Positions 16,960 to 34,691 are shown, numbered from the stretch's first letter. The stretch is 64,000 nucleotides of DNA from Clostridia bacterium (GCA_017537175.1 JAFYLH010000001.1:15387-79386); one strand, 5' to 3'. Numbers and translations are program-made. Notes: generated by a model from the letters alone, not told the origin.

Positions 16960-17685
16960 TTAATTGTTCGCAAACAACCATTCCGGATCAGCACCGAAAA
17001 ATTCCTTAAATCTGTCAGGCTGAACCGACTCGACAACAGCTACAAGCTTCATATTTATACCGCTGGTTGTATCACTGTCATATTTGGTCGAGGCAGATGT
17101 AACGAAAGGAACCTCTGTAGGATTTCTCTTTTTAACCGTTTTTCCGTTCTCGTCCTTTTCGTTAACCTCTGTGTATGTCACGACATTTTTGTAATAGTAA
17201 TAATCTCCAACCTTTATCCAATCATCACCCAAAGTATAGGTGACATCTGTCGCAGGATGCATAACCTCGGTATCACCGCTAAGGGTATAAAAGTTCTCAA
17301 AAAGCTGTACTCTGATGTAAGCAGAGCTGGGTCCGGTGAATTTGACCTTAAGCTGTAATTCATCCAAATCATAAATATTAAAGACAACATCATCTGTAAG
17401 ATCGGTAAAATCGGATTCAGACGAAGACAACTTATAGAGGGTCTGTGTTTCAAAATCGGTGGTTATAACCGTAAGATCCGCATCCTGCTCGGGTGCAAAC
17501 CAAGAAAATGCCATACCGATAGAAAACACAACTACCATCAGAATTACAACAATTGCTGCAATCAGTATGCTGTAACGGCGGCGAAATTCCCTGCTTGAGG
17601 AAATATCATTCCTTTGCTTAACTTCACTGCCTTTTTTTGATATAGTTTTATCAGGCAGATTAGGTAATTTTTTACTTTTACTCAT
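16960..17685 (-). CDS. Secreted TasA/camelysin-like (SipW-substrate-like) protein, minor subunit candidate
   Basis: 241 aa with a basic N-terminus and a hydrophobic helix ending in ...IGMAFSWFAPEQD. This resembles the SipW-cognate signal-peptide end (A-x-F-S/T-D). It is the last gene of the operon. Confidence 0.5.
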   Translation of the reverse strand: MSKSKKLPNLPDKTISKKGSEVKQRNDISSSREFRRRYSILIAAIVVILMVVVFSIGMAFSWFAPEQDADLTVITTDFETQTLYKLSSSESDFTDLTDDVVFNIYDLDELQLKVKFTGPSSAYIRVQLFENFYTLSGDTEVMHPATDVTYTLGDDWIKVGDYYYYKNVVTYTEVNEKDENGKTVKKRNPTEVPFVTSASTKYDSDTTSGINMKLVAVVESVQPDRFKEFFGADPEWLFANN

Positions 17686-17691
17686 ATATTA

Positions 17692-18348
17692 TCATTCACC
17701 CGTATTCAATACTATCTTAAAGCTCATCATCGCATTGAGATTGAGTGCGCCTTCCTCGTCAATTATCTGTCCATAGGTTTTACCGGTTTTTTCGTCAACA
17801 TAGTGGTAATCAGCCCAGAATATGATAGCTACCATATGCTTATACACGCTGCCTTTGAAGTCGTCAGAGGTATATATCAATACGGCATCCTTGTCATTAC
17901 CCGAGCCTGCGGTATGGTTATTGTTTATCGTCTGTGAATAAGCTAAATTTGTATCTGTTCCCGCAACATAATCGGTATCAATGTAATAATGAAGACCCTT
18001 AGGAACAGTAATAGATATGCTTACATTGTTAGGCAAGGGGGACTCTACCTCAAGAGGCATTACACGAATAGCTTTTGAAAAGTCGTTAACGGAAATCTCA
18101 TCGTCACCCAGCTTGGTGGCTGAGGGTAATATGACCGATTTATCTGTAACGATATCCTGACCCAGTTCTGTTCCGTCCTGCTCGGATTTAACAGAAATAT
18201 AGAACGGATCGACCGAAACTGCTGTGTCGTCACCAAACCAGGCAAAAACCGCTGTTATAAGCAGAACGATTGCAAGGAGAAGTATGGCACCTGATTTTAT
18301 AAACTCGTTGCGCAGGTGACGCTTTCTTTCAAGCTCAACAGGTCTCAT
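17692..18348 (-). CDS. Secreted TasA/camelysin-like (SipW-substrate-like) protein, minor subunit candidate
   Basis: 218 aa. The signal-like N-terminus ends in ...ITAVFAWFGDDTAV. An AGGAGA RBS is present. Confidence 0.5.
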   Translation of the reverse strand: MRPVELERKRHLRNEFIKSGAILLLAIVLLITAVFAWFGDDTAVSVDPFYISVKSEQDGTELGQDIVTDKSVILPSATKLGDDEISVNDFSKAIRVMPLEVESPLPNNVSISITVPKGLHYYIDTDYVAGTDTNLAYSQTINNNHTAGSGNDKDAVLIYTSDDFKGSVYKHMVAIIFWADYHYVDEKTGKTYGQIIDEEGALNLNAMMSFKIVLNTGE

Positions 18349-18376
18349 ATCTTTCTCCTTTCATCAAATTTTTACT

Positions 18377-21300
18377 TTAGTTTGAGAATATTCTGTATAT
18401 ACCCCAAGGTAATGTGGGTTCTGATATATTGAAAATTATATAAACATCATCCAAATCAGCTATAGAGACATTCGCACCCGAATCGCTTGTAGTAACCGAA
18501 ACAGGCTGAGTACAAGCCGCATCCTTAAATGCGGTAATTGTATAAGTGTACTTTACGGGTAAAGTCATCTTAAAGTTCATTGTCTCGCCCACATAGAGGA
18601 ATCTGAGAGACTCAAATTCATCAGTCATCTGAGAATTGAGGAAAAGGTTATATTCATTAGCCAACGAATTAGTAACCTTAGTCAAGCCCTTGTTATGCAT
18701 ATCGGCATTATATTCGGTTTTGAGATCTGCATCTTCATACACAAACTTGTAGTGGACATTTATGCTCTTAACATTGAACATTACATACCTGGTATCGGCA
18801 TTAAATAACGCATTAAAGGGCTTTATTGTGTATAACTGCTTTCCACCGGTCTTCAGTTCAAACATACCGTTCTTATACATTCCGATATCAGTAGCACCGA
18901 TTAGATCTCCGCGAACAAAGGCATACCCTGTAGAAGCAGAGTCGGCCGGATATGCTACAGGCTTACCGATAACCATATTAGAGGTTACACTGTATTTATC
19001 GTAAGCCATTTTCATTTCAACCGTTTCAAAGCTTACAGAGGAAGCAGGTCCAAGTTCATTTACATAATTAAACGAAACAGAAGCAACAAATGATGTTCTG
19101 GATTTATATGTAGAATACACACCGTTGTAATTATCACCAGCAAAATATTTCAGCTGAGGATAGTGAACAGCACTTCCGCCAAGCTGAGATGTGACGGGAT
19201 AAACCTCCCATTTGTCACTTAACTCGATCTTATCTGAGTTACCTGTAAGATCGGCTGTTGTTACTGCATAGCTGTCTTCGGAATAGAGTATACCTGCAGC
19301 CTGCCAATCATAATAGGAATTAGTAACGGTACCGCTGTCAACAAGACCGTATCTTGTTCCGTTTTTTACAGTACCGATGTTTCCGGTAAATAATGAATCC
19401 TCGACATCACCGCCGCCGACTGCAAAGAATCCGCTTACTGTTTCGGCATCAACGACAACAGCAGTGGAATATGTGCTTATAGCTTTTGTAGTGTCATCAG
19501 TAACAGCTACAATGCCTGCTGCTGCCTCGGTGCCTGATACAATACCGTATGTAATACAGGTATCGATAAGAGTATCAGTGTTAGCCTCACCGGCAATCAT
19601 ACCCGAATTCTTAGAATTCTCTACTGTACCGGTGGCAATAACATTGATCACATTGCAATCCCTCATGCTACCTGCAAGTATACCCGCATTTTCAGCATAG
19701 ACAGGAGTACCGTCCGCTGTAGTTTTGTTACTCTTAATCACCGCATTGGAAATATGAAGATTTGAGATAGTACATTTATTGCTTACAGTTGCAAAAAGAC
19801 CTATATTTCCTTCATTTGCATTTGTAATACTAAGATTTGCAATTAAAGTTTTATTACCATCAAGAACGCCCTTCATACCTATTATAGGTAAATGACTTAC
19901 TGTTGCAAGGTCAAACAGCGCAGTTGTTGAAAAATTGTCCTGATATTTTACGGGAGTAAACTCCAATTTATAATTATACTTACCTGTTTCATCGTCAAGG
20001 CAGTATACTCTGATCATATCAAACTCATTATAATCATTGATTATAAAGGGAGACTGGGCTGTACCGTTACCGCCTACGATATAGGGGTTTTTGTCGGCTG
20101 TGGTTACATGAACATAGATATCGCGTTCGAAGCTGCCTGAATATGCGGTGAACTTGATGTCACCTGTATTTGTGAACAGGTACTTGCCTGTATTTGCATC
20201 ATATGTGTTTCCGGAAAGACCGTCTATAGTTGCGCCTTCATTAGTGGGAAAATTGCTGAGATCGGTGGGATCAAAGTAGTATTCATCTACACCGCCGCTT
20301 ATGCGCCAGTCAATTCTGTTTGAAGCAGTGCCTACATTTTTAGTAATTGTAGCATAAGAATATTTATCAGCAGATGAAACAACAGTAAATTCTCTGCCTG
20401 TAGTTAATCCGTCCTCGCGGCTAACATCCACAATAGCAGTAGATATCGCAGACATTCTTTTTATATTTTCCCTGTTACCGTCATCAAAGCTGATCTGAGG
20501 ATAATAACCCTCATAGTTGACCCAGCCTGTACCCTTAAGCTTTGACTTGATCTCCGCAGGCGTACAGCGGTGAGGATCCATGTCACCCTGTCGCTGCAAG
20601 GAAACATTCTCGTCGTAATATACATGATGTGATTCCTCAAGACCCTTGATAACACCGATAGACTTTACGGTATCGGCATAGGGATTAAGAATACACATAG
20701 ATGTGTATGATTCGGTAATACTGGGGGTAAAGGAATATCCGATAAGACCGCCGATATAATTGCGCCCGTCATTATCGATACTGCCTGTAGAATAACACTT
20801 TGTAACAAGATTGGTTGTAGCAGTCGATGATTCGGTATACGAGCCTATAAGACCACCGACATAACTGCCGTTAGTATTAATATCAACCATAGCAAAGCTA
20901 TTATGCATATCTCCGCCGAAGCTGCCAACAAGACCTCCTATATAAGAGGGATTGTCACCGTAAACAGATATGGTACCGTCAACTATACAGTCAACGACCC
21001 TGCCGGAGGTCATAACACCTGCAAGGAAACCGAAGCCTACTTTATTACCGGCATTTAAATCTGTAATTGTACAGTTGTACATTACGGTGTAGTAGAAATA
21101 ACTGCCCTTAGCAACATTAGTGAACAGTCCTCCACCGGACATATTCAAATTACTGATAGTATGATAATTACCGTTGAAATATATGACCTTATTAGTCGCA
21201 TCTATAGGGGTATAGGTGATTCCCGATGCATCTATATCAGCAGTAATTTTAATTGTAACAGGACTTGTTGCACTGTTAACGGAAGTAGCCAGTCCTGCAA

Positions 21301-21424
21301 GATCGGCAGCGGAGCCGACATTGATAGTGGTAGCAGCACTTGAGGTAAACATCATACCAAGATTACATGATGTGACCAATATCGCCAATGTAAGTATCAT
21401 AGATATAATCTTGATCTTTTTCAT
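18377..21424 (-). CDS. Large secreted GLUG-motif repeat protein (adhesin-like)
   Basis: I moved the start to MKKIKIISMILTLAILVTS, which has an AGGAGG RBS. The protein has a signal peptide and repeated GLUG-type motifs (IGGLVGS, VGGLIGS, IGGLIGY, AGILAGS). Confidence 0.7.
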   Translation of the reverse strand: MKKIKIISMILTLAILVTSCNLGMMFTSSAATTINVGSAADLAGLATSVNSATSPVTIKITADIDASGITYTPIDATNKVIYFNGNYHTISNLNMSGGGLFTNVAKGSYFYYTVMYNCTITDLNAGNKVGFGFLAGVMTSGRVVDCIVDGTISVYGDNPSYIGGLVGSFGGDMHNSFAMVDINTNGSYVGGLIGSYTESSTATTNLVTKCYSTGSIDNDGRNYIGGLIGYSFTPSITESYTSMCILNPYADTVKSIGVIKGLEESHHVYYDENVSLQRQGDMDPHRCTPAEIKSKLKGTGWVNYEGYYPQISFDDGNRENIKRMSAISTAIVDVSREDGLTTGREFTVVSSADKYSYATITKNVGTASNRIDWRISGGVDEYYFDPTDLSNFPTNEGATIDGLSGNTYDANTGKYLFTNTGDIKFTAYSGSFERDIYVHVTTADKNPYIVGGNGTAQSPFIINDYNEFDMIRVYCLDDETGKYNYKLEFTPVKYQDNFSTTALFDLATVSHLPIIGMKGVLDGNKTLIANLSITNANEGNIGLFATVSNKCTISNLHISNAVIKSNKTTADGTPVYAENAGILAGSMRDCNVINVIATGTVENSKNSGMIAGEANTDTLIDTCITYGIVSGTEAAAGIVAVTDDTTKAISTYSTAVVVDAETVSGFFAVGGGDVEDSLFTGNIGTVKNGTRYGLVDSGTVTNSYYDWQAAGILYSEDSYAVTTADLTGNSDKIELSDKWEVYPVTSQLGGSAVHYPQLKYFAGDNYNGVYSTYKSRTSFVASVSFNYVNELGPASSVSFETVEMKMAYDKYSVTSNMVIGKPVAYPADSASTGYAFVRGDLIGATDIGMYKNGMFELKTGGKQLYTIKPFNALFNADTRYVMFNVKSINVHYKFVYEDADLKTEYNADMHNKGLTKVTNSLANEYNLFLNSQMTDEFESLRFLYVGETMNFKMTLPVKYTYTITAFKDAACTQPVSVTTSDSGANVSIADLDDVYIIFNISEPTLPWGIYRIFSN

Positions 21425-21443
21425 ATTTACCTCCTTGTAGATT

Positions 21444-22064
21444 TTAATCTTTAGTATTTGTTTTATCATCGAAAGCATCTGCTTCCGATTTACCTGCTGT
21501 ATTATTACCAACCTTTTCGGGAGTATTGATTATAACAAACAGGTCTATCAGGTTTATAAGAACGATTATTGCAATGGGAAGAACTGTTATACAGAATGAT
21601 ATTGTTCTGTTGGAGAGTATCTCAAACACCTTACCTATGTGATAGGAGGTGAACACTACCCTTCCCATAATATCCTCTTCATAAACCTTATATTCGTCGG
21701 GCTCGGGGTTTGCCGCACCCTTGGTCGTAATTTCGGTGACACCGTCACCGTTGATATCAATTGCATATATATTGTGGGTATTGATGCTACCCTCAATATC
21801 CGGATCATGGGATACAAAGGATATTGTATCGCCCACCTCCAGCTTCTCAAAGGGAACTTCCTTTGCAATAATGAAGCTTCCTTTTCTTATGTCGGGTTCC
21901 ATGCTTCCTGTAAGAACATAATAGAACCTGCTGCCGAAAAACGACATTTCGGGATTAGCTCTGGAAAGTGTGGCAAAAACGAGAAGCGAAAACGAGAACA
22001 CAAGGAAAACTGCGGCAATCACGCTTGTGATCTTAATTGCTCGCTTGGTCTTAGGCTTGGTCAT
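21444..22064 (-). CDS. SipW-like (archaeal/ER-type, S26 family) signal peptidase I, copy 2
   Basis: 206 aa with an N-terminal TM helix, the catalytic-Ser box VLTGSMEP, a TKGAANPEPDE box and a C-terminal TM helix. Its start overlaps the stop of the upstream gene (ATGA at 22062-22066). Confidence 0.75.
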   Translation of the reverse strand: MTKPKTKRAIKITSVIAAVFLVFSFSLLVFATLSRANPEMSFFGSRFYYVLTGSMEPDIRKGSFIIAKEVPFEKLEVGDTISFVSHDPDIEGSINTHNIYAIDINGDGVTEITTKGAANPEPDEYKVYEEDIMGRVVFTSYHIGKVFEILSNRTISFCITVLPIAIIVLINLIDLFVIINTPEKVGNNTAGKSEADAFDDKTNTKD

Positions 22065-24142
22065 CAGTTTTCACCGTTGTCGTTAACAAAATTGATAGAT
22101 ACGGCATCCGCTATGCTCATAACCGACTCGTCGGATGCTTGTGTTATATCAGACTTTACCTGCTTTGGCTTTGAAACAGCCTTAGCCTTTTCCTTTGCGG
22201 CCTTTTCCTTAGCCTTAGCCTTAGCCTTTGCTGCTTTTTCCTTTTCAAGGGCTATAGCCTTTTCCTTTGCGGCTTTTTCCTTAGCCTTTGCTTTTGCTTT
22301 AGCAGCCTTTTCCTTCTCTATGGCAGCGGCTTTTTCCTTGGCTGCCCTTTCCTTTTCTTTTGCTTTTTGCTTTGCCTGTCTCTCTTTTTCGAGAGCCTCG
22401 GCCTTTTCCTTGTCTGCCTTGGCTTTAGCCTTTGCCTTTTCACGGGCTACGCGCTCTTTTTCAAGCGCATCAGCCTTTTCCTTGTCTGCCTTGGCTTTAG
22501 CCTTTGCCTTTTCACGGGCTACGCGCTCTTTTTCAAAAGCCTCGGCCTTTTCTTTATCTGCCTTGGCTTTAGCCTTAGCCTTTTCACGGGCTACGCGCTC
22601 TTTTTCAAGAGCCTCGGCCTTTTCTTTATCTGCTTTGGCTTTAGCCTTTGCCTTTTCACGGGCTACGCGCTCTTTTTCAAGAGCCTCGGCCTTTTCTTTA
22701 TCTGCCTTGGCTTTAGCCTTTGCCTTTTCACGGTCAAGGCGTTCCTTTTCAAGAGCTGCTGCCTTTTCCTTAGCAGCCTTTTCCTTTGCCTTCTGCTTAG
22801 CTATGCGCTCTTTTTCAAGGGCTTTTTCTTTTTCAAGCTTAGCCTTTTCACGGGCAATACGGTCAGCCTCGCGCTTCTTCTCTCTGGCAATACGCTCTTC
22901 CTCGCGCTTGCGAGCGGCTTCTTCTCTCGCCTTCTGACGAGCAATACGAGCCTTTTCTTCTGCCTTTTCGCGGGCAATACGCTCTTTTTCTGCCTTAATG
23001 GCATCTTGCTTAGCCTGCTTTTCGGCTTTAAGAGCATTGCTGATAGCCTCGGCAATAAGAGCATCCTGCTTTTCGCGCTTCTTTGCCGCCTTGACGATCT
23101 CATCAAGGTATACTCGCCTGATCTCGGTATTATAGATATCGTAGTCGTCTACGATCTCCTCGATCATATTCTTAACGAACTTAGGCTTGATCTGTCTGCG
23201 CTTCTTCTTGTGTTCAAGATCAACCTCATCTGAGGAATCTGCCGCCTTCTTAAGGCAGATATAGTTAAGAGCAAGAGCGTTATAAAATGCAAATACCTGC
23301 TGTTGCTCAAGCTCACGGTATTCGTTGATAACATCAATGGTATAGCCTACCTCGTGGTAGGTCTCGATAAACTGCCAGAGAACAAGAGCCTTTTTAAAGT
23401 TAGGGTCCTTAAGAATAACATTTGTTCTCATAATAGGAGGACGCACGGGAGCAGAGCCTCTCATAGAACGGGCAAATGCTGAGCCGCGGAACTCACGGAT
23501 AATATGGGAAAGACGGTCGATACGGGCAAAAATACTCATACGGCTGGTGTCCATATCGATCATAGATGTCTTATTTGTAGCAGAAATTTCGAGCTTGTAG
23601 GTAACATCCTCGGATCCATTGTTAAATGTTCCCTCCATGCCAAGCTCTGCGACCTCTTCATCGTCGGTAATACCGTAGAGCACCTTACGGCGGCTCTCAA
23701 CAAACTCCTCAACCTTGCCGAGAAGTGTATAGATAAAACGGTTTTCGTAGATGTCAAAGCTCTCTTCACGGTATACATTGAGTATCTCGTTGGGAGTTAC
23801 TCTGTCACCGTCTACTCTTGCTATGAGGTTGGTATGCTGTGCAAGATGGCGAACAGACTCATTGGTAATACGGCGTGCCTTTTCAATCGGCACTATCTCC
23901 TCCTCCTGTACGATGAAACGACGGGGGTTACGGATGATGGTATCAAGCTCAACAATGCAGTTCTCTATCTGCTCGATCCAGCGGACATCGATCTTCTTAT
24001 CCTTTTTCTTCTGATAAAAAGAGATCTTGTTACTGCCCGCACCGATATTCTCCATAACATAGCTATAGAACTCATCGCTCTCTATCATCGAGACAAAATT
24101 TTCATAGTATGAATCATATAATGAATCTATCTGTTTAGACAC
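22064..24142 (-). CDS. McrC/DUF2357-like N-terminal domain protein with a long K/E/A-rich coiled-coil repeat C-terminus
   Basis: 692 aa with a GTG start and an AAGGAG RBS 8 nt upstream. The first ~330 aa are globular and contain FDIYENRFIYTLL, which I associate with DUF2357/McrC-like partners. I saw no PD-(D/E)xK motif. Residues ~355-665 are repeats of the type (KEKAEALEKERVAREKAKAKAKAD)n. Confidence 0.55.
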   Translation of the reverse strand: MSKQIDSLYDSYYENFVSMIESDEFYSYVMENIGAGSNKISFYQKKKDKKIDVRWIEQIENCIVELDTIIRNPRRFIVQEEEIVPIEKARRITNESVRHLAQHTNLIARVDGDRVTPNEILNVYREESFDIYENRFIYTLLGKVEEFVESRRKVLYGITDDEEVAELGMEGTFNNGSEDVTYKLEISATNKTSMIDMDTSRMSIFARIDRLSHIIREFRGSAFARSMRGSAPVRPPIMRTNVILKDPNFKKALVLWQFIETYHEVGYTIDVINEYRELEQQQVFAFYNALALNYICLKKAADSSDEVDLEHKKKRRQIKPKFVKNMIEEIVDDYDIYNTEIRRVYLDEIVKAAKKREKQDALIAEAISNALKAEKQAKQDAIKAEKERIAREKAEEKARIARQKAREEAARKREEERIAREKKREADRIAREKAKLEKEKALEKERIAKQKAKEKAAKEKAAALEKERLDREKAKAKAKADKEKAEALEKERVAREKAKAKAKADKEKAEALEKERVAREKAKAKAKADKEKAEAFEKERVAREKAKAKAKADKEKADALEKERVAREKAKAKAKADKEKAEALEKERQAKQKAKEKERAAKEKAAAIEKEKAAKAKAKAKEKAAKEKAIALEKEKAAKAKAKAKEKAAKEKAKAVSKPKQVKSDITQASDESVMSIADAVSINFVNDNGEN
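22382..22741. repeat. Five tandem 72-bp (24-codon) in-frame repeats inside the 692-aa gene
   Basis: The unit CTCTTTTTC(A/G)AG... recurs at 22382, 22454, 22526, 22598 and 22670, an exact 72-bp period. More degenerate K/E/A-coding repeats flank it across about 22147-23077. Confidence 0.8.
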
Positions 24143-24186
24143 TTTCTGATCTCCTTATCTTGGGTGTGCCAATAACGGCTGATATT

Positions 24187-25731: not shown

Positions 25732-25804
25732 ATGCTGTACCTTCCTTTGATGAAGTAATTTTTAGCTTGGGAGAGATAGTGCCGTAAGGCTTATTCTAAG
25801 CTCT

Positions 25805-25956
25805 CAACTCTGAACTCATAGCATAGTTATGAGTTTACAGTTTAGAGTTCAGAACAATTACCGCCCTCCCCAATCAACTCTAAACTCATAGTTCTAAACT
25901 CTAAACTTGTAGCAAAAGAGTTTATAGTTTAGAGTGAAGAGCTTTAAAGGGGAGGC
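25805..25956. repeat. Two tandem hairpin-forming modules in the sipW-1/AAA+ intergenic spacer
   Basis: A 17-nt direct repeat, CAACTCTGAACTCATAG (25805) and CAACTCTAAACTCATAG (25875). Stems seen: TCTGAACTC/GAGTTCAGA (25809/25845), CTAAACTCTAAACT/AGTTTATAGTTTAG (25894/25919), and an outer GCCCTCCCC/GGGGAGGC (25863/25949). Confidence 0.5.
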
Positions 25957-25969
25957 AGTTAATATTCTA

Positions 25970-26728: not shown

Positions 26729-26764
26729 AAAACCTTATATCCTCAAAATATATACCGATATACT

Positions 26765-26784
26765 GGGCGGCGGCAGCACCGCCC
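26765..26784 (-). terminator. GC-rich hairpin after the major subunit gene (possible partial terminator)
   Basis: Stem GGGCGG/CCGCCC with an 8-nt loop, 48 nt downstream of the 266-aa gene stop. There is no clean U-tract. Confidence 0.3.
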
Positions 26785-26831
26785 ATAATATCAATATTCT
26801 CTAAATTAGAATTAACTTTTGTTAATTTAAA

Positions 26832-27632
26832 TTATGCCCAAGCGATGGAAAGAGCGAATTGCTGATCCTGCATAGACCAAGAACCGGAACAATCCTTATC
26901 CATACCCTCAAGCCAGATAGCAACAGTTACGAGCTTGTCGCCTGCCTCGTCAAACTTGATTGAGTAGCCGTCGTTACCGAGAGCAGCCTGAGTTCTTGCT
27001 GCTGCAAAGCCGGTAGCTGCGTCATCAGCGGGAACGAAAAGCTGAGTACCGTCATCCTTAACGCTTACAGCACCTGCTGCGTTGCAAGGTCTGTAGGAGT
27101 CAGCGGAATCAACATCGATATCATAGATGGTCATTTCGCCCTGCTCTGCAGTATCACTTACGCCGAGAGCGTACTTGATGCCAGCCTGGAAGGTAGCGTT
27201 AGCAGATGTGTTAACATTGATAGTAGCTGTACCAGCCTTAGGAGCTCTTACCCAGAAGCTGAAGAGCATGTAGCCTGCAGCGTCAGCATCAGCGGTTGTC
27301 CAGTTGTTAGCTGTATCGCTGTATGTAGCAGGATAGAAGCTCTTTGCATCAGCTGTAGAGTGAGCAACGAATGCCTCGTCAATGATAGCCCAATCAGCTG
27401 CGGTATCCCAGTCTACAACATTAAGTGTAGGCTTGAATGCACCTGCGGAGTAGTTGCTGGATGCGTCAGCAGCAGCAAGAAGAAGAGCTCCGTCGGATGC
27501 GGTTACATCGATCTTGAAAGCCTCAATAGAGTTGGTGTTAGCGGATGTGAACCATGCATAAGATGCTGTTGCTAAGCACATAAGAGCTACGAGCAGAACA
27601 GCTGTAGAAGTAATTAAAGCTTTTCTTTTCAT
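26832..27632 (-). CDS. Secreted TasA/camelysin-like protein, candidate major fibre subunit
   Basis: 266 aa. The N-terminus MKRKALITSTAVLLVALMCLATASYAWFTSAN fits the SipW-cognate signal class. The body is Ala/Asp/Thr-rich, the C-terminus carries IWLEGMDKDC, and the AGGAGG RBS is strong. Confidence 0.6.
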   Translation of the reverse strand: MKRKALITSTAVLLVALMCLATASYAWFTSANTNSIEAFKIDVTASDGALLLAAADASSNYSAGAFKPTLNVVDWDTAADWAIIDEAFVAHSTADAKSFYPATYSDTANNWTTADADAAGYMLFSFWVRAPKAGTATINVNTSANATFQAGIKYALGVSDTAEQGEMTIYDIDVDSADSYRPCNAAGAVSVKDDGTQLFVPADDAATGFAAARTQAALGNDGYSIKFDEAGDKLVTVAIWLEGMDKDCSGSWSMQDQQFALSIAWA

Positions 27633-27789
27633 TTTAGATTTCCTCCTAAAATAAGATAAATTGATATTATATATTTACGCCTATCCCGATTATCCTTGCG
27701 TGTACAATCTGCCATACACTTGGGGTTTAACCCCGGGACTCAGGAAAAAATCGGCTAAAATATAACTAAGTTAGATTACATTACAGGAA

Positions 27790-28620
27790 TCATTCGGATG
27801 TTTCTTTTGCTGATTCCTTATATTTGTTTTGAACATTGAAGTTCATTTCAAATTTAAGTGAGTTGCCGAATATGTCATTGTTACATTCCGGATCTTCGCC
27901 CTCGAGCCACATTACTACTGTGTATCTGTCTGTTACACCGGGATCGATCTCGTTATTAGCAACCTCTAATAGATCAGGTTCTCCTAAAAACTCAACGGTG
28001 TCGGCTTCAAGTGGAGTTCCTTCGATAGGTGCTTTTGCCCATACAACACTTTCACCGTTTCGTATGATCATAATTCTTATGGCATCAAGTGCATCAACCT
28101 GTTTGTTGATAAGCTTATCAACAAGAATCATATCATAAGTATAACGGATAGGCTCATCTGTAACATTCTTTAAATGGAATGTATAAGCAAGATAACTGGG
28201 ATCCTTTTCGGTAGGCGTGGGCTTATTAAGCGAAGTTTTGCTATGAGCACCTCCGTCAACCTCAGTATGTATATTTTCAGGAATCCAGGATCGCCCATTG
28301 TGCCAAAGATCATGAACACTTGTACCCTTGAGCAGAATCGTAGGATCATCGAAATTACTTGTTTCACAAAGTGATATAAGATTTCGCTGACCTTTGTCGA
28401 TCTTTACGGTGAAATCGCCAAATTCATCACCTGATCCGGCACCACCCTGCCAGAAGAACAAGAATAACAGGTATAAAATTATTACTAACAACAACAGCGA
28501 TACTACAATCCATTTTGTTACCTTTATGCGTTGCTGCAGCTTTGCCGTCCTTTGACCGGATCGCTTGACTGCTATCGCGTTAGCAACAGGATCATTACTG
28601 TTGAAATTTTTTCCAGCCAA
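27790..28620 (-). CDS. Membrane-anchored paralogue of the fibre subunits (TapA-like anchor candidate)
   Basis: 276 aa with a TTG start. A ~35-aa cytoplasmic basic tail precedes one TM helix (WIVVSLLLLVIILYLLFLFFW). The extracellular domain ends in MWLEGEDPEC, the same motif as the 266-aa protein. Confidence 0.5.
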   Translation of the reverse strand: MAGKNFNSNDPVANAIAVKRSGQRTAKLQQRIKVTKWIVVSLLLLVIILYLLFLFFWQGGAGSGDEFGDFTVKIDKGQRNLISLCETSNFDDPTILLKGTSVHDLWHNGRSWIPENIHTEVDGGAHSKTSLNKPTPTEKDPSYLAYTFHLKNVTDEPIRYTYDMILVDKLINKQVDALDAIRIMIIRNGESVVWAKAPIEGTPLEADTVEFLGEPDLLEVANNEIDPGVTDRYTVVMWLEGEDPECNNDIFGNSLKFEMNFNVQNKYKESAKETSE

Positions 28621-28695
28621 GTTTTCACCGCCCTTCCATTAGATTCATCTTCGGGCGGATAATATCCGCCCCTACAGGGTCAGATAACCAACCCG

Positions 28696-29493
28696 TCAAA
28701 ATGCAGAGATTTCCCTTTCGGGAGTCGAGAAATAGTTGCCCTCTATAAGGAAGCAACGCATTCTCTTCATTTCGTTAAGCTGTTCCTTGGTGTCAATACC
28801 GTCGGCAATTACAAGGACATTAAGCTTTTCGCATAGCTCTACTATACCCTCGGTAATACCGGCTGCTCGCTCACTTACCGCAACATCACGGGTGAAGTCA
28901 CGGTTGAGCTTGACATAATCGACCTCGAAGGTCGCCAGCTTACGAAGCGAGGTGGACTCAGAGCCAAAGTCTGTGATGCACACCTTGGCACCGCCCTCAC
29001 GGAGCAATCTGATATTTTCAAAAAGCTGATCTGTTCCTGCCATAAGCTCGGCTTCGTTTATCTGAATACCAAAGCGCTTATGGGGTATCTCGTATTTAGC
29101 CAGTATCTTGGTAAATTCGGTATAGAAATCAGCTCTGGTAAGATATCTTGCCGTAAGTGTTATAAAGATACGGTGGATATGCTTACCGTAGGAGTTCTGA
29201 CGCTTAATAAGCTCACAGACCTCCTCAATCTGCCACTTGCCTACACGGGATGCAAGCTGATTTCTGCCCGCAACCGCGGCAACGCGGTCATATGTAAGTG
29301 TGCCGAGTTTCTTGTCATTGATTACAAGTGCGGCATCGTAACCTAAGATGATATTGGAGTTGGTATCGTATATCTGCATAAACAGATATTCCATAGGACG
29401 AAGCTCTGTTGCGCGCTTGCGTCTGGGACGCTTTGCCGCAGGCTTCTTTCCCTTCTCCTTTATCTCGGTTTTTACTTTTGTTTCTTCTGCCAT
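28696..29493 (-). CDS. Degenerate EAL-domain protein with a Lys/Arg-rich N-terminal tail
   Basis: 265 aa. The layout is EAL-like, but the signature positions are substituted: EAL becomes DAA (GYDAALV), EITE becomes QINEAE, DDFGTGYSS becomes TDFGSESTS, KID becomes KLN, and the AEGVE...QG positions read ADGID...EGNYF. Confidence 0.65.
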   Translation of the reverse strand: MAEETKVKTEIKEKGKKPAAKRPRRKRATELRPMEYLFMQIYDTNSNIILGYDAALVINDKKLGTLTYDRVAAVAGRNQLASRVGKWQIEEVCELIKRQNSYGKHIHRIFITLTARYLTRADFYTEFTKILAKYEIPHKRFGIQINEAELMAGTDQLFENIRLLREGGAKVCITDFGSESTSLRKLATFEVDYVKLNRDFTRDVAVSERAAGITEGIVELCEKLNVLVIADGIDTKEQLNEMKRMRCFLIEGNYFSTPEREISAF

Positions 29494-29518
29494 AGTAAGT
29501 TTTCCTTTTCTGCAGAAA

Positions 29519-32500
29519 TTAGATTGTCAGCCAATCGGTGGTTGCAGTTACAAGATTGCCGCTTGCATCCTTGTAAATTGCATAACCGTAGCCGTAGTAT
29601 GCACCTGCCTTAAGTCGGAGCTTAAAGGTGCCGTTGATGCTAAAGTCTGTGGTCGTCAGTCTGTAAGTAGCTGAAGTATCACACAGCTGATCAAATGTAA
29701 CCTGTGTGCTTGCGGTAGTCAAAAGGAAACCGCTTTCCACCAAGGTGTATCCGTCAGGCGCATTTCGCTGAATAATAACCGTGTCATTACTGTTACTTAA
29801 CAAAACCACACCTGCTGCAGCTGTGCCCGAGTATACTGCCGTAATGTTTGCATCACAGGATACCCTGTGCTTGTATACAGGCTCGTAGCTTACAAATCTA
29901 CCACCTATCTGCCATCCTACAAAGTTTTTGGCATCGGTCATAAGAGTCAACACTTCGTCATAAAGCGCACTGTGTGTCTTGTTCATTGCTGTGTAGGTTG
30001 AACCGGATACAGTTATACTGTATGAGGTGTCACTCTTATATTCATAGTACAATGCACTGTCTATAACAGTATCACCGGCTACACCTGTCTTTGTACGGGA
30101 GGATGAAGCAGGATATAGCTGCCACGGATCATCCGAGCTTCTAAGCAGCTTATTATTGCGATCAATATAGAAGCCGTTCTTACTGCCCTCACTTACAAAC
30201 TGCGCCGTCATAGCACAATGTGACACGATGGTAAAGGTATATGTTGACCTGTTGGTCAATATACGGTCGGATTTTAACCTGAGATTAACATCACTCGTAC
30301 CACTCTTATGGTTATTATTCCAGGTGAAATATGCGAACTCATAGCCCGATGCTGCAGCTACATTGGATATCGAAACCTGTGTACCGTAGATACATTTGAA
30401 GGTTTTGGTTTCGGTAATATTGCTGTCGGTAACCGGCTCGCTCACACCCGGCGCGGTATAGGTTACGGTTGCAAAGGAGCTTGCGCCCTTACCGCCCTCA
30501 ACCAAGGTAAAGTTAACTACCTTTGTCCACTGAGCATAAAGGGTAATGCCGGGCTCCATAAACAGACATGCCGCGGTTGTGGGCGACATTGTAAAGTTTA
30601 CGGAATAGGAGGTACCCGTACCGTCAGCCTTGGTGTTCCAGGATGTGATAACATAGTTATCGGTTGTAAACAGATTACTGTTGTAGGTAACATATTCCCC
30701 ATAGGGAGAAACAAGACTGTAAACAGTATCTCCTCCGGTATAGCCCTCATTATCGGGGGTCTGGCCTACAGGATAATTAGCCTTGTATGCAACGGTATAA
30801 TCCCATTGCTGATAGTATGCATACTGCTCGGTAAATGCGGGATTAAGTGTTCCGAATCCATTAGGATATGTCAGCTTTAATCCCGAGCCGTATACCTGAT
30901 AACCCGTGGTATAGGAATTACTGTTATAGTCGGTATAAGCCTTGTATCTTTGCTGACCTACCTCGGAATACGGAGCATGAAAGTATACACCCTTACCGCC
31001 GTACGGAAGAATATCATGATAGTTATGCAGCGTTGCTGCAGTTCCTCCGTCATACTGGTAGGGGATCAAACCCATCTTGAATGCTTCCCAAGAGGGATAA
31101 TGAACAGAATCCAAAAGATTATAAGAGCCGAGGGTAGTTATCTCGGTATATATGAACATAATCGGATATACTACTTCCTTAAACTCGGTTTTGGTGCTTA
31201 CAAACCGTTTATCACCTGCAGAGGTATAAAAGGTATTGCCGTTAACCGTCTGCTTATTCGCGGTTATAAGCTCATCAGAGCTTGTGTTACCCTCGGGGTC
31301 ACATACCACCGTGGGGAATGTGAAGTGTGCGCCTTCGCCGATATATATGGTATATCGCTTTGGTTCCTTGGCGATAACCACACCTTTTTCAACAAACTCT
31401 TCCTTATATACATTGATATTAAAATCACATATATACTGCTCATGAGAAGAGGGTGTGAATTTATACGCGTCGATATAATCCTCATCGGGATCATATGCAA
31501 ACAGAGGTTCGCATACAACAGGATATTTGGTACCGTTATATTCTACATAATCCATACCCGCGCTGTACGGTTTATATACACCGTTTTCGGTAGGCCTGTA
31601 ATAGATATAGTACATTGTACCGCCGGACTTTTCATTCGGATCAAAGTAGGCGTTGTTATAAGCACCGCCGTTCATATGTGCGTACTTATTGTTGGCATAA
31701 TAGGTACTGAGATAACCTACCGAATACTCGTATCTATCGTTATCTTCATCATAATACTCATAGTGTGCATAAATGATACTGTCGGATGCATGCTGGTAAA
31801 GCTGACCTTCGTTCCAGGTTGCGCAATCGATAAGATGATCATTATTTTCTATATGAGCCTTACCGCTGTGCTTCCATCCTACACTTACATGCAGCACACC
31901 GTTTACAGTATGCTTTGCCGTAGGAATGTAGTAGAGACAGTCCTTGTAGGTCTGCCCTGCCATGATAGCCATTACACCGTATCTGCGGTTAGAGTCAACT
32001 ATGACACCGTCACCGTGAGGTGCTTCGCCATTGTTGTCTCTGTTAACACCGCCGTCAAATACTACTTCGTAGTATCCTTCGGTGTAAATAGCATACAGTT
32101 CCAGATGGGTATTTCTTAAGGGACCTGAACCCTCAACACCCTCACCGGGGTCTTCGTAATCGTCATCAAAAATATACTGCCAACCGTATTTATTATCATG
32201 AGTTACATACTGTTGTTTACCGCGGGAATCATAGTATGTCCAACCTACCCAGGCAGCTTCGGTATTCTTGGCTGCAACAAGACAAGGATTGAAATCGATA
32301 CAGATCCTGGGATCGTTGTCATCGTCGATATAGTCGATCACTCGACTTGTAGCCTTATCGAATATAAGGTTATCAGAGGTTTCGCTAAGCTTGAACAGAT
32401 CCTCCATAGGAAGATTTTCAGAAAGACAGATGTCTCCGCTCTTGTTCCAAAGCTTAACTCTATATCCGTATGCACCTATCCTGTTACACTCGGGACAGGT

Positions 32501-34564
32501 TCCGTAATCACGCTGTTCACCGTCTTCCCAGGATAAGGTGTGATAATTGCCGTTATCGTCCTTGTGGTCACACCACCAGCGCCACATAGCAACTATCTGT
32601 ACGTCACCTTCATACTCGTGTACAGCATCGCCCCAGCCTTCTTCGGGAGTAAAGAGCTTGTTGACAAAATTGCCGCTTTCATCCTTGACCATCATGCCCC
32701 AACCCTTAAAGGTATAGTTGGTTCTGGTGGGCTCGGGAAAACCGCCGACTATAGTAGCAATAGAATTGTTTAATGCTATGCCGTATTCCAAGGAATATCC
32801 GCTCTCCATAGTTGCGGGATTCACAGCGTCATCGTTAAGATTGAAGATGATCTTATATGGAGTATCGATCCATACAGCATCCAATGTTATATTCTGCCCG
32901 AAATAATAGGTCTGGTTCTCACCCCAGCCCTCGGTCCAGTGATGGTCGGTACGGTTATTCCACTGCCATCCGCCAAAGGCATAGCCCTCACGGGTGGGTG
33001 CCGGGAATCCGCCGATAACATCGTTGAAGTACTGTCCGTCAAGGAAGGTATAGGTCGTATTGTATCCGGACGGCATTGTACCGCCTTTCAAATTAAATGT
33101 TAAAGTACGCTGTGTTTTCGGTGTATATTCTGCCTTGAACACAGTACTGCCTACAGGATCGGGTCTGTATCTGCTGGATGCCCAGGTAGAGGAGGTATAT
33201 ATGCCTCCCTTGACACCGTTATTGTAAACCCTCCATCCTGTGAAGGTATAACCCGGTAATGTAGGCACGGGAATGGTAGGACTGACCGCATCTGAAAGAA
33301 GATCGTCATAGTGAATCTCTACCACGGTATCAACACCCTCAGGCATTGTAGCTGCCCTCGGAGGATCAACAGTATCATCCTGTCCGGGCTCAAATGTAAT
33401 TGTGTATGTCTCCTTACCGTATATGGCATGGAGTGTATAGTTAACTGCTGACGAAAATGTTGTGTCAGCCTCTTCTGCGTAAGGGTCAATCGACCAGCCG
33501 AGGAATTTAGCTCCCGGCTTAGTCGCACTGAAGTTCGGTTCAACGGGAACCGAGGCGTTTTCATTTGTGGTCTTCAGCTCGTAGGTGTCGACTTTTGTAG
33601 GCTGATCTATTGCTGTACCGTTAACAACAAGCTTACCGCCGTTTGCGTTAAATGTAACGTTTATACGCTTTTTATTAAAGCTGCGGCAGACAGTACATCT
33701 GTACAGATCATATCTGTTCTCACCATCAGAAGTAACCCACTGTCTGGTGTGGTCGATCTTGGGTATAGCGGTCGTGAATGTTTCGCCGCAATTATTACAC
33801 TTTTGGGTCTTGGAGCCTTCCTGTGTACAGGTAGCGGCAACCGTGCTTGTTACAGTTGTGGAAGTGTGCAGACACTTCCAAACAGCTGTCATTGTAGCAT
33901 CGCCGGTTAATGTATAATAATTGTTTTCCCAGCTGCCTGTGTGAAGACCGAAAATTTTGTTGTAATCATAATACTGAAATTCGTATCCGTCTCTCACAGG
34001 AGTGGGAAATGAGTTGTTAAATGCTTCCTTGTAAGACTGATTATACTTGATAGAATATGCTTTGGTGTTAGAACCATTTATCTTGCCGCCATTGGCATCA
34101 AGGGTTAGTGTATAGGTTTTTGGGATCCAGCAAGGATTGAGATACCAAACTCGGTTTGCGGTAGTTTCTATTGCAACCTCTGATCCAAACGGTCCTATCC
34201 AACCGTCAACTCCGTTGTTGGAGTAGTAGTACGAACCGGAAAAATCATATCCGGTACGGCTAAAGGCGGGATTTGAAAACAGATTACTATATGCGGTGGG
34301 AGCAAAAAGATTTCCCGGGGTCGTCGGATTAGTGCTTGTTCCGCATACGATACCGTACCAGTTAGGAAGACCGTTTCCTGTCTGCTCGGAAAAATAAACT
34401 GTATTAAGATTAACCGTAGTAGCGTCACCCATGTATATATACATAAAAACATTATGAGCCGCATTACCGGATAAATCGAAATATACGAATGAGCTTAAAA
34501 TCGTAAGAAGAGCCATAATAAATGTTATAACACGCTTGACGGAATGAAGCTGTGTATTTGTCAT
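29519..34564 (-). CDS. Giant (about 1681 aa) secreted/anchored protein with Listeria-Bacteroides (Flg_new) repeats
   Basis: I trimmed the start to MTNTQLHS, which has a GGAG RBS 9 nt upstream. The N-terminal signal-anchor is followed by at least 5 modules of the type YT(L/I)TF.ANGG ... GY.F.GW ... AVW. There are two Cys4 zinc-ribbon-like inserts (CNNCG...CTVC and CDH...CPEC) and a long Tyr/Asn-rich C-terminal region. Confidence 0.8.
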   Translation of the reverse strand: MTNTQLHSVKRVITFIMALLTILSSFVYFDLSGNAAHNVFMYIYMGDATTVNLNTVYFSEQTGNGLPNWYGIVCGTSTNPTTPGNLFAPTAYSNLFSNPAFSRTGYDFSGSYYYSNNGVDGWIGPFGSEVAIETTANRVWYLNPCWIPKTYTLTLDANGGKINGSNTKAYSIKYNQSYKEAFNNSFPTPVRDGYEFQYYDYNKIFGLHTGSWENNYYTLTGDATMTAVWKCLHTSTTVTSTVAATCTQEGSKTQKCNNCGETFTTAIPKIDHTRQWVTSDGENRYDLYRCTVCRSFNKKRINVTFNANGGKLVVNGTAIDQPTKVDTYELKTTNENASVPVEPNFSATKPGAKFLGWSIDPYAEEADTTFSSAVNYTLHAIYGKETYTITFEPGQDDTVDPPRAATMPEGVDTVVEIHYDDLLSDAVSPTIPVPTLPGYTFTGWRVYNNGVKGGIYTSSTWASSRYRPDPVGSTVFKAEYTPKTQRTLTFNLKGGTMPSGYNTTYTFLDGQYFNDVIGGFPAPTREGYAFGGWQWNNRTDHHWTEGWGENQTYYFGQNITLDAVWIDTPYKIIFNLNDDAVNPATMESGYSLEYGIALNNSIATIVGGFPEPTRTNYTFKGWGMMVKDESGNFVNKLFTPEEGWGDAVHEYEGDVQIVAMWRWWCDHKDDNGNYHTLSWEDGEQRDYGTCPECNRIGAYGYRVKLWNKSGDICLSENLPMEDLFKLSETSDNLIFDKATSRVIDYIDDDNDPRICIDFNPCLVAAKNTEAAWVGWTYYDSRGKQQYVTHDNKYGWQYIFDDDYEDPGEGVEGSGPLRNTHLELYAIYTEGYYEVVFDGGVNRDNNGEAPHGDGVIVDSNRRYGVMAIMAGQTYKDCLYYIPTAKHTVNGVLHVSVGWKHSGKAHIENNDHLIDCATWNEGQLYQHASDSIIYAHYEYYDEDNDRYEYSVGYLSTYYANNKYAHMNGGAYNNAYFDPNEKSGGTMYYIYYRPTENGVYKPYSAGMDYVEYNGTKYPVVCEPLFAYDPDEDYIDAYKFTPSSHEQYICDFNINVYKEEFVEKGVVIAKEPKRYTIYIGEGAHFTFPTVVCDPEGNTSSDELITANKQTVNGNTFYTSAGDKRFVSTKTEFKEVVYPIMFIYTEITTLGSYNLLDSVHYPSWEAFKMGLIPYQYDGGTAATLHNYHDILPYGGKGVYFHAPYSEVGQQRYKAYTDYNSNSYTTGYQVYGSGLKLTYPNGFGTLNPAFTEQYAYYQQWDYTVAYKANYPVGQTPDNEGYTGGDTVYSLVSPYGEYVTYNSNLFTTDNYVITSWNTKADGTGTSYSVNFTMSPTTAACLFMEPGITLYAQWTKVVNFTLVEGGKGASSFATVTYTAPGVSEPVTDSNITETKTFKCIYGTQVSISNVAAASGYEFAYFTWNNNHKSGTSDVNLRLKSDRILTNRSTYTFTIVSHCAMTAQFVSEGSKNGFYIDRNNKLLRSSDDPWQLYPASSSRTKTGVAGDTVIDSALYYEYKSDTSYSITVSGSTYTAMNKTHSALYDEVLTLMTDAKNFVGWQIGGRFVSYEPVYKHRVSCDANITAVYSGTAAAGVVLLSNSNDTVIIQRNAPDGYTLVESGFLLTTASTQVTFDQLCDTSATYRLTTTDFSINGTFKLRLKAGAYYGYGYAIYKDASGNLVTATTDWLTI

Positions 34565-34662
34565 TATTATCAACTCCTCTCTCAAAAATTGTATGCCTGA
34601 ACTATAAATTTTATGTTCACAGACAAATGGGCATAACTATACCTATAGTTACTCGTTATTAT

Positions 34663-34691
34663 ATAATAGCACTTTTTCCTTTAGTTGTCAA
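34663..34691 (-). promoter_or_regulatory. Putative promoter of the fibre operon
   Basis: In minus-sense: TTGACA (34691-34686), a 17-nt spacer, then TATTAT (34668-34663). This implies a ~90-nt 5' UTR. Confidence 0.4.

Follow-up and report, generated by a model that had tools for sequence, protein, structure and literature searches.

What is encoded by a run of eleven co-directional genes lying between two purine biosynthesis genes in a member of the Clostridia, and why does it place signal peptidases beside a relative of the restriction GTPase McrB? The locus sits in a 64,000-nt stretch of DNA from Clostridia bacterium GCA_017537175.1 (JAFYLH010000001.1:15387-79386), called the window here, and all coordinates are counted from its first nucleotide. 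The eleven open reading frames (ORFs), g1 to g11, are all on the minus strand at 34585-16960, with purF upstream and purC downstream, both identities being backed by Pfam. Judging from its motifs and gene order, the locus is a member of CoCoPALM, a class that has been named and is as yet uncharacterized. We consider it reasonably probable that this is a CoCoPALM-type surface-fiber system, in which secreted subunits are processed by SipW-type signal peptidases and a GTPase module controls assembly (Table 1).

The class was introduced by Bell et al. 2024 (PMC11090510). In the passages of that paper bearing on it, the N-terminal domain through which McrC binds McrB and activates it is identified as DUF2357, and a large clade of McrB relatives is set apart by a shortened signature motif, NxD, after which D or E is the usual residue. 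CoCoPALM is the name given there to an NxD-clade GTPase fused to an FtsB-like transmembrane (TM) and coiled-coil segment, linked to proteins of the signal-peptidase family and a coiled-coil McrC (DUF2357) homologue; it receives one paragraph in those passages, with the analysis deferred to a “forthcoming publication.” No such follow-up was found in the literature searched, and the terms CoCoPALM, signal peptidase, FtsB, and EAL were not found in two supplementary files of the CoCoNuT paper. The present locus resembles the published description in that g6 combines the NxD motif (N-N-D, then D) with TM and coiled-coil segments, g7 combines DUF2357 with a coiled coil, and the two SipW-type peptidases, g5 and g8, lie directly upstream and directly downstream of the GTPase pair. 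As the link to signal peptidases has already been published under the CoCoPALM name, the system is less novel than a first-pass annotation of this DNA assumed. What is added here is a dead EAL protein (g2), an unannotated subunit family (g3 and g4), a motif in the cytoplasmic tail of the first peptidase (g5, SipW-1), and a hairpin behind the subunit gene, none of which is mentioned in the passages on CoCoPALM. Beyond the papers cited here, the literature yielded nothing further that links SipW or TasA with McrB, AAA+ proteins, or cyclic di-GMP (c-di-GMP).

Which of the eleven genes belong together? Related loci, given here as L numbers, were found with peptide patterns taken from g6; the relatives sampled are those of about 49% identity and above, the sample is biased that way, and every locus comes from a metagenome-assembled genome (MAG). 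Gene counts were taken by script from 57 loci, among them 44 distinct g6 loci, with ORFs called mechanically, each denominator being the loci with enough flank. Upstream of g6, a SipW-type gene is present in 37/38 loci, a subunit gene in 33/36, and g3 and the EAL gene in 29/30 each, while g7 follows downstream in 36 of 37. Diverged contigs share the order EAL, small protein, small protein, S26 peptidase, GTPase, and large DUF2357 protein, and hold it in unrelated surroundings, for example among ABC transporters or chromate transporters. By this measure, g2-g7 is the conserved core of the system and g1 and g8-g11 are lineage-specific; since the core recurs in so many contexts, the g6-g7 pair appears to be part of the fiber locus and not an inserted defense island. 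The full g1-g11 order is confined to the closest clade (L009, L010, and L012, with g6 84-93% identical), and the purC/purF/uvrD flanks are found only in the closest relatives, with g6 93-98% identical (both sides in L009, the purC-uvrD side in L010 and L057). The first-pass annotation had treated all eleven genes as one elaborate surface-appendage unit at the purC/purF site. The linkage of SipW peptidases, subunits, AAA+ pair, and EAL protein stands, as does synteny over g2-g7, whereas the giant proteins, like the second peptidase, vary and the eleven-gene layout and its site do not extend past the closest relatives.

Where g6 remains 65-68% identical, g4 falls to 22-25% and g3 to 31-34%, the usual pattern of a conserved machinery and an exposed, fast-evolving subunit. 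One Faecousia MAG holds two loci with a full-length g6 homologue, each 67% identical (L017, JAZMZW010000167, and L023, JAZMZW010000229), so, barring a binning artifact, the system may be present twice in some genomes. A g6/g7 pair at 49% identity is also present at 2585-5218 of L053 (CAZSRL010000028), a contig labeled as a Muribaculaceae MAG and thus as a Bacteroidota bin; no recognizable SipW or subunit gene was found upstream of it, and the contig is either mis-binned or a reduced variant.

Could a relative of a restriction enzyme belong to such a system at all? In g6, two TM helices (residues ~13-35 and 47-89) and a short coiled coil, with a conserved helical stretch at 83-125, precede a variable linker and the GTPase domain. 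The Walker A (GISGTGKTS), Walker B (ILDEMNIAR), and NxD (TANNDDST) motifs are intact and align with those of McrB, TANNDDST falling opposite MNTADRS, and N[NIV]DDST recurs in 120 of 121 aligned family proteins, the remaining one reading NNDAST. Further matches are to NCBIfam McrB (1.2e-6) and, over the GTPase core only, to the PADLOC candidate defense protein PDC-M26A (6.7e-34). Pfam gave no DNA-binding domain in g6, the N-terminal 190 residues being accounted for by TM helices, coiled coil, and linker. In g7 and its orthologues, DUF2357 is the sole family above the Pfam cut-off (18/18 orthologues), and about 300 residues of g7 form a K/E/A-rich coiled coil encoded on a 72-nt tandem repeat (22382-22780; 5.5 copies, 92% matches). 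No nuclease domain was found in g7, in the 18 orthologues, or in 120 listed homologues, which gave PF09823 only or nothing. Searches of PDB with g7 and with a profile of its N-terminus returned nothing useful, and a PADLOC scan of g2, g5, g7, and g8 returned no matches. Like E. coli McrBC, then, the pair consists of an AAA+ GTPase with Walker A, Walker B, and signature regions and a partner with a DUF2357 domain; unlike McrBC, it has neither the DNA-binding domain of the one nor the PD-(D/E)xK nuclease of the other, its signature is NxD and not NxxD, and it has membrane anchoring and long coiled coils. These features point to an McrBC origin, with nuclease and DNA-binding domain lost and TM anchoring and coiled coils in place. 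The pair that had first been read as a TM-McrB-like ATPase and a coiled-coil partner is thus retained, refined to a McrB-type GTPase and a McrC N-terminal-domain protein.

With this ancestry, g6 and g7 might be a self-contained defense module of the McrBC type (type IV restriction or CoCoNuT-like) that neighbors the fiber genes by chance. The matches to McrB and PDC-M26A would fit, as would the nearest plasmid relative of g6, a soluble AAA+/DUF2357 pair of the defense-island type. We regard this explanation as highly improbable: the nuclease is missing from g7 and from 120 homologues, TM helices stand in place of a DNA-binding domain, and the PADLOC match is limited to the GTPase core. The pair also keeps a constant site between SipW-1 and the downstream fiber genes (36-37 of 37-38 loci), and g6 is 65-69% identical across families, unlike fast-turnover defense genes. 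Among 72,556 plasmids and 50,697 phages, none carried a match covering at least 80% of g6. Homologues of g6 form more than 8000 clusters at 90% identity, many of them 65-69% identical to it; the MAGs that carry them belong to Oscillospiraceae, Acutalibacteraceae, Faecousia, and further Clostridia of the gut, rumen, and digesters.

A McrB-family protein can take up other work in the cell. In S. aureus, the AAA+ protein PcdA has been co-opted for division-plane selection (PMC10602043), and by analogy the GTPase pair might serve for positioning and not as a motor, directing an envelope or spore-associated structure that depends on SipW to the septum or pole. That precedent, the FtsB-like N-terminus attributed to these GTPases in the passages of Bell et al. 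(PMC11090510), and a weak FtsL match in g6 all lend something to the idea. The FtsL match is not significant (E 0.3), however, none of the loci examined has division or sporulation genes linked to it, and g6 differs from PcdA in ways that matter here: in PcdA the nucleotide motifs are eroded, EVE domains are present, and a partner with the McrC N-terminal domain is missing, whereas g6 has intact motifs, TM helices, and such a partner. Positioning is an unlikely role in our estimate, and what PcdA shares with the proposed role of g6 is the use of a McrB-family AAA+ protein of the Bacillota outside restriction.

Two minor observations concern g7. On contig L001, which carries an identical g6, the g7 gene at 11590-13296 was mechanically called at 568 aa compared with 692 aa here, so that either repeat copies were collapsed when the contig was assembled or their number differs within the species; the collection’s own gene calls show nothing on the g7 strand over this interval. 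Antisense ORFs of 432 aa (21639-22937, plus strand) and 288 aa (22367-23233, plus strand) lie opposite g7 and would yield A/F/S/L-rich repeat products; they are almost certainly not genes. In the matching region of L001, a 202-aa minus-strand gene has been called.

What would the fiber be made of? The best candidate is g4, whose signal-anchor ends in the motif [YF]AWF[TS] and is followed by a variable middle and a C-terminal WLEGMDxDC. Across 37 close homologues, there is little or no variation in the first 29 residues, the remainder falls as low as 31% identity, and the motif WLEGxDxDC recurs near the C-terminus. The motif [YF]AWF[TS] closes the anchor in 61 subunit ORFs; it may resemble the signal-peptide motifs of TasA and CalY, and no NCBIfam model matched this signal-anchor region. 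A profile of the g4 family retrieves 3187 representative clusters at E<=1e-3. The structure predicted for g4 by AlphaFold2 (AF2; pLDDT 86) consists of an N-terminal helix, a disordered stretch at 25-39, and a beta-sandwich, and its best Foldseek match in PDB is the thread subunit Saci_0406 of a donor-strand filament (probability 0.95), a weak match to which we return below.

Three further proteins share the signal-anchor region of g4, and homology is detectable among g3, g4, and g10. The first-pass annotation had named g3 a TM-anchored paralogue, and its single TM helix (30-65) and full-length alignment to the g4 family bear this out. In g3, the AWF motif is replaced by AG[DR]FTV, the C-terminus reads WLEGxDPEC in the orthologue alignment, and a basic cytoplasmic tail is conserved across orthologues; we propose that g3 is an uncleaved base or anchor. 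The annotation’s two minor subunit-like proteins fared less evenly, since g10 is related to the g4 family (A1 profile, 3.8e-11; hhalign 96.8% over 53 N-terminal columns only) and g11 is linked only through g10 (hhalign 81.5%, 106 columns), its own comparison with the g4 family not being significant. Two other kinds of pilus were considered and rejected. A sortase pilus does not fit, as the LPXTG-type motif [LI]Px[TSA]G was not found in any of the 11 locus proteins, the subunits included, and Pfam and NCBIfam scans gave no sortase domain among the locus genes. A type IV pilus does not fit either: the subunit N-termini consist of MKRK and a hydrophobic core without a G-F-x-x-x-E prepilin leader, the peptidases are of the S26 type, and the sole NTPase is McrB-like.

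The proposal that g4 is the major subunit is supported by a conserved hairpin behind its gene. The stem-loop after g4 (-32.9 kcal/mol, z -4.78) was equaled in stability by none of 200 shuffled sequences (0/200), and a strong hairpin occupies the post-subunit spacer in 43/43 distinct loci, as against 1/35, 4/38, and 0/11 for neighboring spacers. In 42 of the 43, the most stable 45-nt segment reaches -20 kcal/mol or lower, and all 43 beat 20 shuffles, with stem sequences that vary between lineages. We propose that this hairpin is a partial terminator or 3'-end stabilizer that would keep subunit mRNA in excess of machinery mRNA. Graded expression had originally been suggested from two GC-rich hairpins, of which the one after g4 proved general and the one after g2 did not: the g2-g3 spacer is shorter than 45 nt in most loci, and the g2 hairpin has no counterpart in most of them. 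The g5-g6 spacer carries AACTCTAAACTRTAAACTC twice where 0.04 occurrences are expected, matches no Rfam family, and has similar sequence in the closest relatives only, spacers of 22-120 nt being the rule in most other loci; a small repeat element inserted here and a regulatory RNA particular to the lineage are two possible identities.

Fast-diversifying surface subunits are also what would be expected of phage receptors, and the module comes from the NxD clade of McrB, other members of which are predicted defense systems in the passages of Bell et al. (PMC11090510). A McrBC-derived sensor of infection or envelope stress might thus trigger the peptidase to shed, block, or remodel fibers that serve as phage receptors, and the conserved linkage to peptidases and surface proteins would suit such a role. 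Still, Pfam gives no nucleic-acid sensor domain in g6 or g7, high conservation and a near-universal core better suit a housekeeping-type structure, and the conserved post-subunit hairpin implies a constitutively high subunit output. We judge this explanation to be improbable, even more so than positioning, and return to the proposal of a fiber whose assembly would be under GTPase control.

The peptidases bear on how such control might be exerted. The first-pass annotation had noted duplicated SipW-type peptidases, and both g5 and g8 indeed exceed the 51.85-bit cut-off of TIGR02228, the model for archaeal/SipW-type signal peptidase I; the equivalog model for Bacillus SipW also matches them, at 1.8e-20 and 1.5e-17, respectively, both below its cut-off. 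Serine and histidine can be read in g5 (DSMQ and HRIV), g8 has GSMEP and the histidine, and the two proteins are 26% identical. In g5, a second TM helix leads to a cytoplasmic C-terminal tail with a conserved motif, EQKQAAIAEYLAKQ, which corresponds to EAEKQKAIEEYIAQQKA, present in one to three copies in orthologues of up to 547 aa. SipW-1 reaches 390-550 aa in several lineages (L002, 8234-9877; L031, 6668-8182; L032, L036, L040, L043, and L044), where the 1-3 copies of EAEKQKAIEEYIAQQKA are followed by 150-300 residues of an extremely acidic, repetitive tail, a highly unusual feature for a signal peptidase. A second peptidase lies within 10 kb downstream of g6 in 19 of 32 loci.

At the other end of the core, g2 is an EAL protein that had been read as degenerate, and it is so in all 37 sequences compared. 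When g2 is aligned with DosP, none of the seven catalytic motif regions compared is free of substitutions (EALAR to DAALV, N to T, EITE to QINE, DD to TD, KID to KLN, EGVE to DGID, and QG to EG), and the full catalytic and metal-binding set (EALxR, N, ExxE, DD, K, E, and Q) is present in 0/37 sequences. Long orthologues carry a fused HD_5 domain in front of EAL, and the HD motif is lost in 7 of 8 of these. The losses speak against an active EAL c-di-GMP phosphodiesterase, and g2 is presumably a receptor or adaptor rather than an enzyme, with c-di-GMP as the candidate ligand. A comparable logic operates in the LapD-LapG-LapA system, where a surface adhesin is processed by a protease outside the cytoplasm, and that protease is under the control of a dead EAL-type c-di-GMP receptor at the membrane. 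The protease there, LapG, is a cysteine protease of the periplasm of Gram-negative bacteria, and no GTPase is involved; the resemblance to what we propose for g2, g6-g7, and SipW-1 is one of analogy only, with no homology beyond EAL.

How might these parts work together? The major subunit g4 would be exported by Sec as a signal-anchored precursor, its hydrophobic N-terminus ending in [YF]AWF[TS], and would be released by g5, its dedicated peptidase, with cleavage presumably at ASYA|WF. Released subunits would polymerize at the membrane on uncleaved g3, whose basic tail would be exposed to the cytoplasm, in what may be donor-strand-type assembly; g10 and g11 would join as minor subunits, and the hairpin behind g4 would keep subunit mRNA above that of the machinery. 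In this lineage, g1 and g9 would be co-expressed adhesin cargo, with SipW-2 (g8) probably processing these giants and the minor subunits. The GTPase g6 would be held at the membrane by its two TM helices and coiled coil and activated by the McrC N-terminal domain of g7, in which a coiled coil would have replaced the nuclease. GTP turnover, gated by g2, would determine the time and site of subunit processing and of addition at the fiber base, the GTPase complex acting through the cytoplasmic tails of g3 and SipW-1. The evidence favors a membrane complex in which four proteins turn conserved parts toward the cytoplasm (the tails of g3 and SipW-1, the GTPase of g6, and g7 along with g2), while the abundant g4 would be exported and cleaved outside. 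The fiber reading can be held with fair confidence; stimulation of GTP turnover by g7, by homology with McrBC, with moderate confidence; and coupling to c-di-GMP, with the direction of control, with low confidence.

Known fibers offer both likenesses and differences. As in tapA-sipW-tasA of B. subtilis and sipW-bsaA-bsaB-bsaC of C. perfringens, a dedicated SipW peptidase adjoins secreted subunit paralogues, the signal peptide appears to end in an aromatic-A-aromatic-F type of motif, and LPXTG is absent; in those operons, one paralogue is the major polymer and another an accessory or anchor, the roles proposed here for g4 and g3. Unlike those operons, the present subunits match neither TasA/camelysin (Peptidase_M73) nor TasA, and the known operons comprise three to four genes without a cytoplasmic NTPase, McrC-like protein, or EAL protein. 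A 2026 preprint groups archaeal threads, Tafi, AbpA/X, and TasA in one superfamily, with loci that combine major and minor subunits with a tip protein, an anchor in the membrane, and a TIGR02228 peptidase. The loci of the archaeal filaments (Saci_0406, Tafi, and AbpA/AbpX) have the same parts list as the one seen here, whereas the fold match of g4 is weak, there is no link at the sequence level, and a GTPase module has not been reported for them.

Several points weigh against a GTPase-controlled fiber and lower the confidence placed in it. The fold match of g4 to Saci_0406 is weak (E 3e-3, TM-score 0.26/0.36), and TasA is not among the top 50 Foldseek matches of the model. Neither g3, g4, g10, and g11 nor distant family members match Pfam or NCBIfam, permissive thresholds giving noise only; PDB sequence and profile searches with g4 and its family profile returned nothing useful; and hhalign of the g4 family to B. 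subtilis TasA gave no match, which is a weak negative. The small proteins had been taken as TasA/camelysin-like, and by Pfam, NCBIfam, PDB sequence search, and hhalign they are not, a result that the first-pass annotation itself had named as counting against its interpretation. By these searches, the g3/g4 subunits constitute a separate, large, unannotated family that matches no TasA/camelysin model. On the side of the machinery, Pfam does not recover an FtsB-like N-terminus in g6, with no DivIC or FtsB match beyond the FtsL match given above. An AF2 model of the g7 N-terminus (pLDDT 76) found no match in PDB by Foldseek, McrC not being recovered, which leaves Pfam DUF2357 and the literature as the basis of the McrC link. 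To our knowledge, fibers of the SipW/TasA type and archaeal donor-strand fibers assemble without a cytoplasmic NTPase, and a motor role for the GTPase therefore lacks precedent. The Arg of EALxR is lost in g2, which makes c-di-GMP binding uncertain. The sampling bias toward closer relatives, and their origin in MAGs throughout, must also be counted. Finally, the locus of an Erysipelotrichaceae MAG (L049, SVBA01000015, 6778-17998) has no EAL gene, so this partner may be a Clostridia-specific addition. At 55% identity in g6, L049 is the most distant complete locus; its gene set comprises a TM protein, a subunit with YAWY in place of YAWF, a SipW, the GTPase, the DUF2357 protein, and a second SipW, and two later small proteins are of the AWF/GWY type.

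A bolder version of the proposal, which we offer tentatively as the less probable one, is a fourth Gram-positive fiber route beside sortase pili, type IV pili, and self-assembling TasA-like fibers, in which a membrane-embedded GTPase complex would drive or gate a Sec/SipW-dependent donor-strand polymer growing from g3, under a switch that responds to c-di-GMP and is formed by a dead EAL protein (in some lineages also a dead HD-GYP). If a GTPase does drive the fiber, this would be the first restriction-enzyme motor rebuilt as a protein-assembly machine, and it would be found in thousands of gut and rumen Clostridia. In evolutionary terms, a restriction-enzyme motor would have lost its nuclease and DNA-binding parts and become a fixed, conserved component of the envelope. 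If the fiber is adhesive, it is probably a main route by which poorly cultured Clostridia attach to particles, mucus, and each other. The GTPase with its more than 8000 clusters and the unannotated subunit family with more than 3000 representative clusters indicate how abundant the system is, and the anchor tail, the peptidase tail motif, the dead EAL protein, and the post-subunit hairpin are its concrete, testable parts.

Table 1. Genes and other features of the locus, with coordinates counted from the start of the window
Feature	Coordinates	Strand	Description	Match or remark
Promoter	34663..34691	-	Putative sigma-70-type promoter, TTGACA-17-TATTAT with TG extension	~100 nt upstream of g1
g1	29519..34564	-	Giant secreted protein, 1681 aa, Flg_new / Listeria-Bacteroides repeats	Pfam Flg_new 2.5e-14, 5 stretches
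g2	28696..29493	-	Cytoplasmic EAL-domain protein, basic N-terminus	Pfam EAL 8.6e-47
Hairpin after g2	28653..28671	-	GC-rich hairpin, GGGCGGAUAUUAUCCGCCC	No U-tract; 75-nt spacer, z -2.05
g3	27790..28620	-	Membrane-anchored subunit paralogue	hhalign to g4 family 96.8%, 218 columns (full length)
g4	26832..27632	-	Secreted subunit, candidate major fiber subunit	N-terminus MKRKALITSTAVLLVALMCLATASYAWFT, signal-anchor
Hairpin after g4	26742..26805	-	Extended stem-loop directly after g4, GC core 26766-26785	Followed by AUAUAUUUUG, U-rich tail
g5 (SipW-1)	25970..26728	-	SipW/archaeal-type signal peptidase I	NCBIfam TIGR02228 56.2 bits
g5-g6 spacer	25732..25969	-	Structured 238-nt spacer, two long hairpins	-73.5 kcal/mol, z -5.35
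g6	24187..25731	-	Membrane-anchored McrB-family AAA+ GTPase (predicted)	PDB McrB 3.3e-6
g7	22064..24142	-	McrC N-terminal-domain (DUF2357) protein	Pfam DUF2357 1.3e-13
g8 (SipW-2)	21444..22064	-	Second SipW/archaeal-type signal peptidase I	NCBIfam TIGR02228 73.4 bits
g9	18377..21427	-	Secreted protein, 1016 aa, GGL[IV]G (GLUG-like) repeats	Variable cargo or adhesin
g10	17692..18348	-	Small signal-anchored protein, ..FAWFGD motif	Candidate minor subunit
g11	16960..17685	-	Small signal-anchored protein, ..FSWFAPE motif	Candidate minor subunit
Terminal hairpin	16930..16953	-	AAAGGUCACC-AAAA-GGUGACCUUU	After g11, in convergent gap with purC

Is the whole block a single operon? The layout first described for it was confirmed in its main lines. 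Eleven co-directional minus-strand ORFs were found in their places, with gaps as called of -68 to 238 nt overall and -1 to 44 nt from g6 to g11. The promoter (34691-34663) is the best consensus match in 16000-35500, at 11/12 positions with TG ahead of the -10 element, and the several promoter-like sites inside the region are all weak, leaving a single strong promoter overall. The hairpin after g11 is present (-16.5 kcal/mol, z -5.7), with a short minus-strand U-tract (UUUAAAUAUUAU), and purF and purC each have a hairpin with a T-run as a separate flanking terminator, the former at 34823-34788 and the latter at 16889-16916. Two starts were moved. For g1, the most likely start is ATG 34564, about 10 bases behind the ribosome-binding site GAGAGGAG, in agreement with the identical gene on metagenome contig L001, called at 1681 aa; for g9, it is ATG 21427 (MKKIKII...), a start also kept in orthologues, which turns the 68-nt overlap of g8 and g9 into a 16-nt gap.

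The alternative is that the g2-g7 core stands with an independently transcribed g1 upstream and SipW-2, g9, g10, and g11 downstream, with no more in common than a need for a SipW-type peptidase. Consistent with this, g1, g8, g9, g10, and g11 are restricted to the close clade or vary among lineages, the giants g1 and g9 are not homologous to the subunits, the block contains several weak promoter-like sites and two longer spacers (157 and 238 nt), and a strong hairpin follows g4. On the other hand, the genes are co-directional with short gaps from g6 to g11, there is one strong promoter, no terminator-like site with a U-tract was found on the minus strand inside the region, and the g1-g11 order is kept in L009, L010, and L012. 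Separate transcription is accordingly a possibility to be taken seriously, yet we hold it to be the less probable arrangement and treat the block as a putative single operon built on the conserved core.

The two giant proteins are among the variable parts. The Flg_new repeats noticed in g1 were recovered by Pfam; the protein has an N-terminal TM or signal segment, and orthologues were found only in L009, L010, L012, L015, and L050. For g9, GLUG-like GGL[IV]G repeats are visible in the sequence, while the Pfam Glug model falls below threshold (E 0.031; 15.1 bits with a cut-off of 20.5), so the GLUG assignment made at first is only partly upheld. The signal peptide of g9 is conserved in orthologues, and its position is occupied in other lineages by an LRR_5 protein or a 5158-aa giant. 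Neither g1 nor g9 showed homology to the g3, g4, g10, and g11 families, and a role for the giants as tip subunits was rejected on this ground.

Composition does not set the block apart. Overall GC, GC at third codon positions (GC3), and codon distance showed no clear difference from the flanks, the comparison proposed at the outset, and horizontal transfer is unsupported, the deviations of g4 and g7 reflecting amino-acid bias. An Rfam scan of 16000-36500 (E<=1) gave no riboswitch, including none for c-di-GMP, the sole match being a spurious microRNA. Elsewhere in the window, a type I restriction-modification system is encoded by hsdR (1444-4737), hsdS (5872-6930), and hsdM (6942-8444), with a DUF4238 gene (4734-5573) between hsdR and hsdS, and the lowest GC of the window (0.32-0.35, at 4-7 kb) falls within this stretch (1444-8444). 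At 58655-60184, the window also encodes a 509-aa protein with two S-layer homology (SLH) domains. The organism probably has an SLH-anchored surface layer, and any fiber made by the locus would have to cross it.

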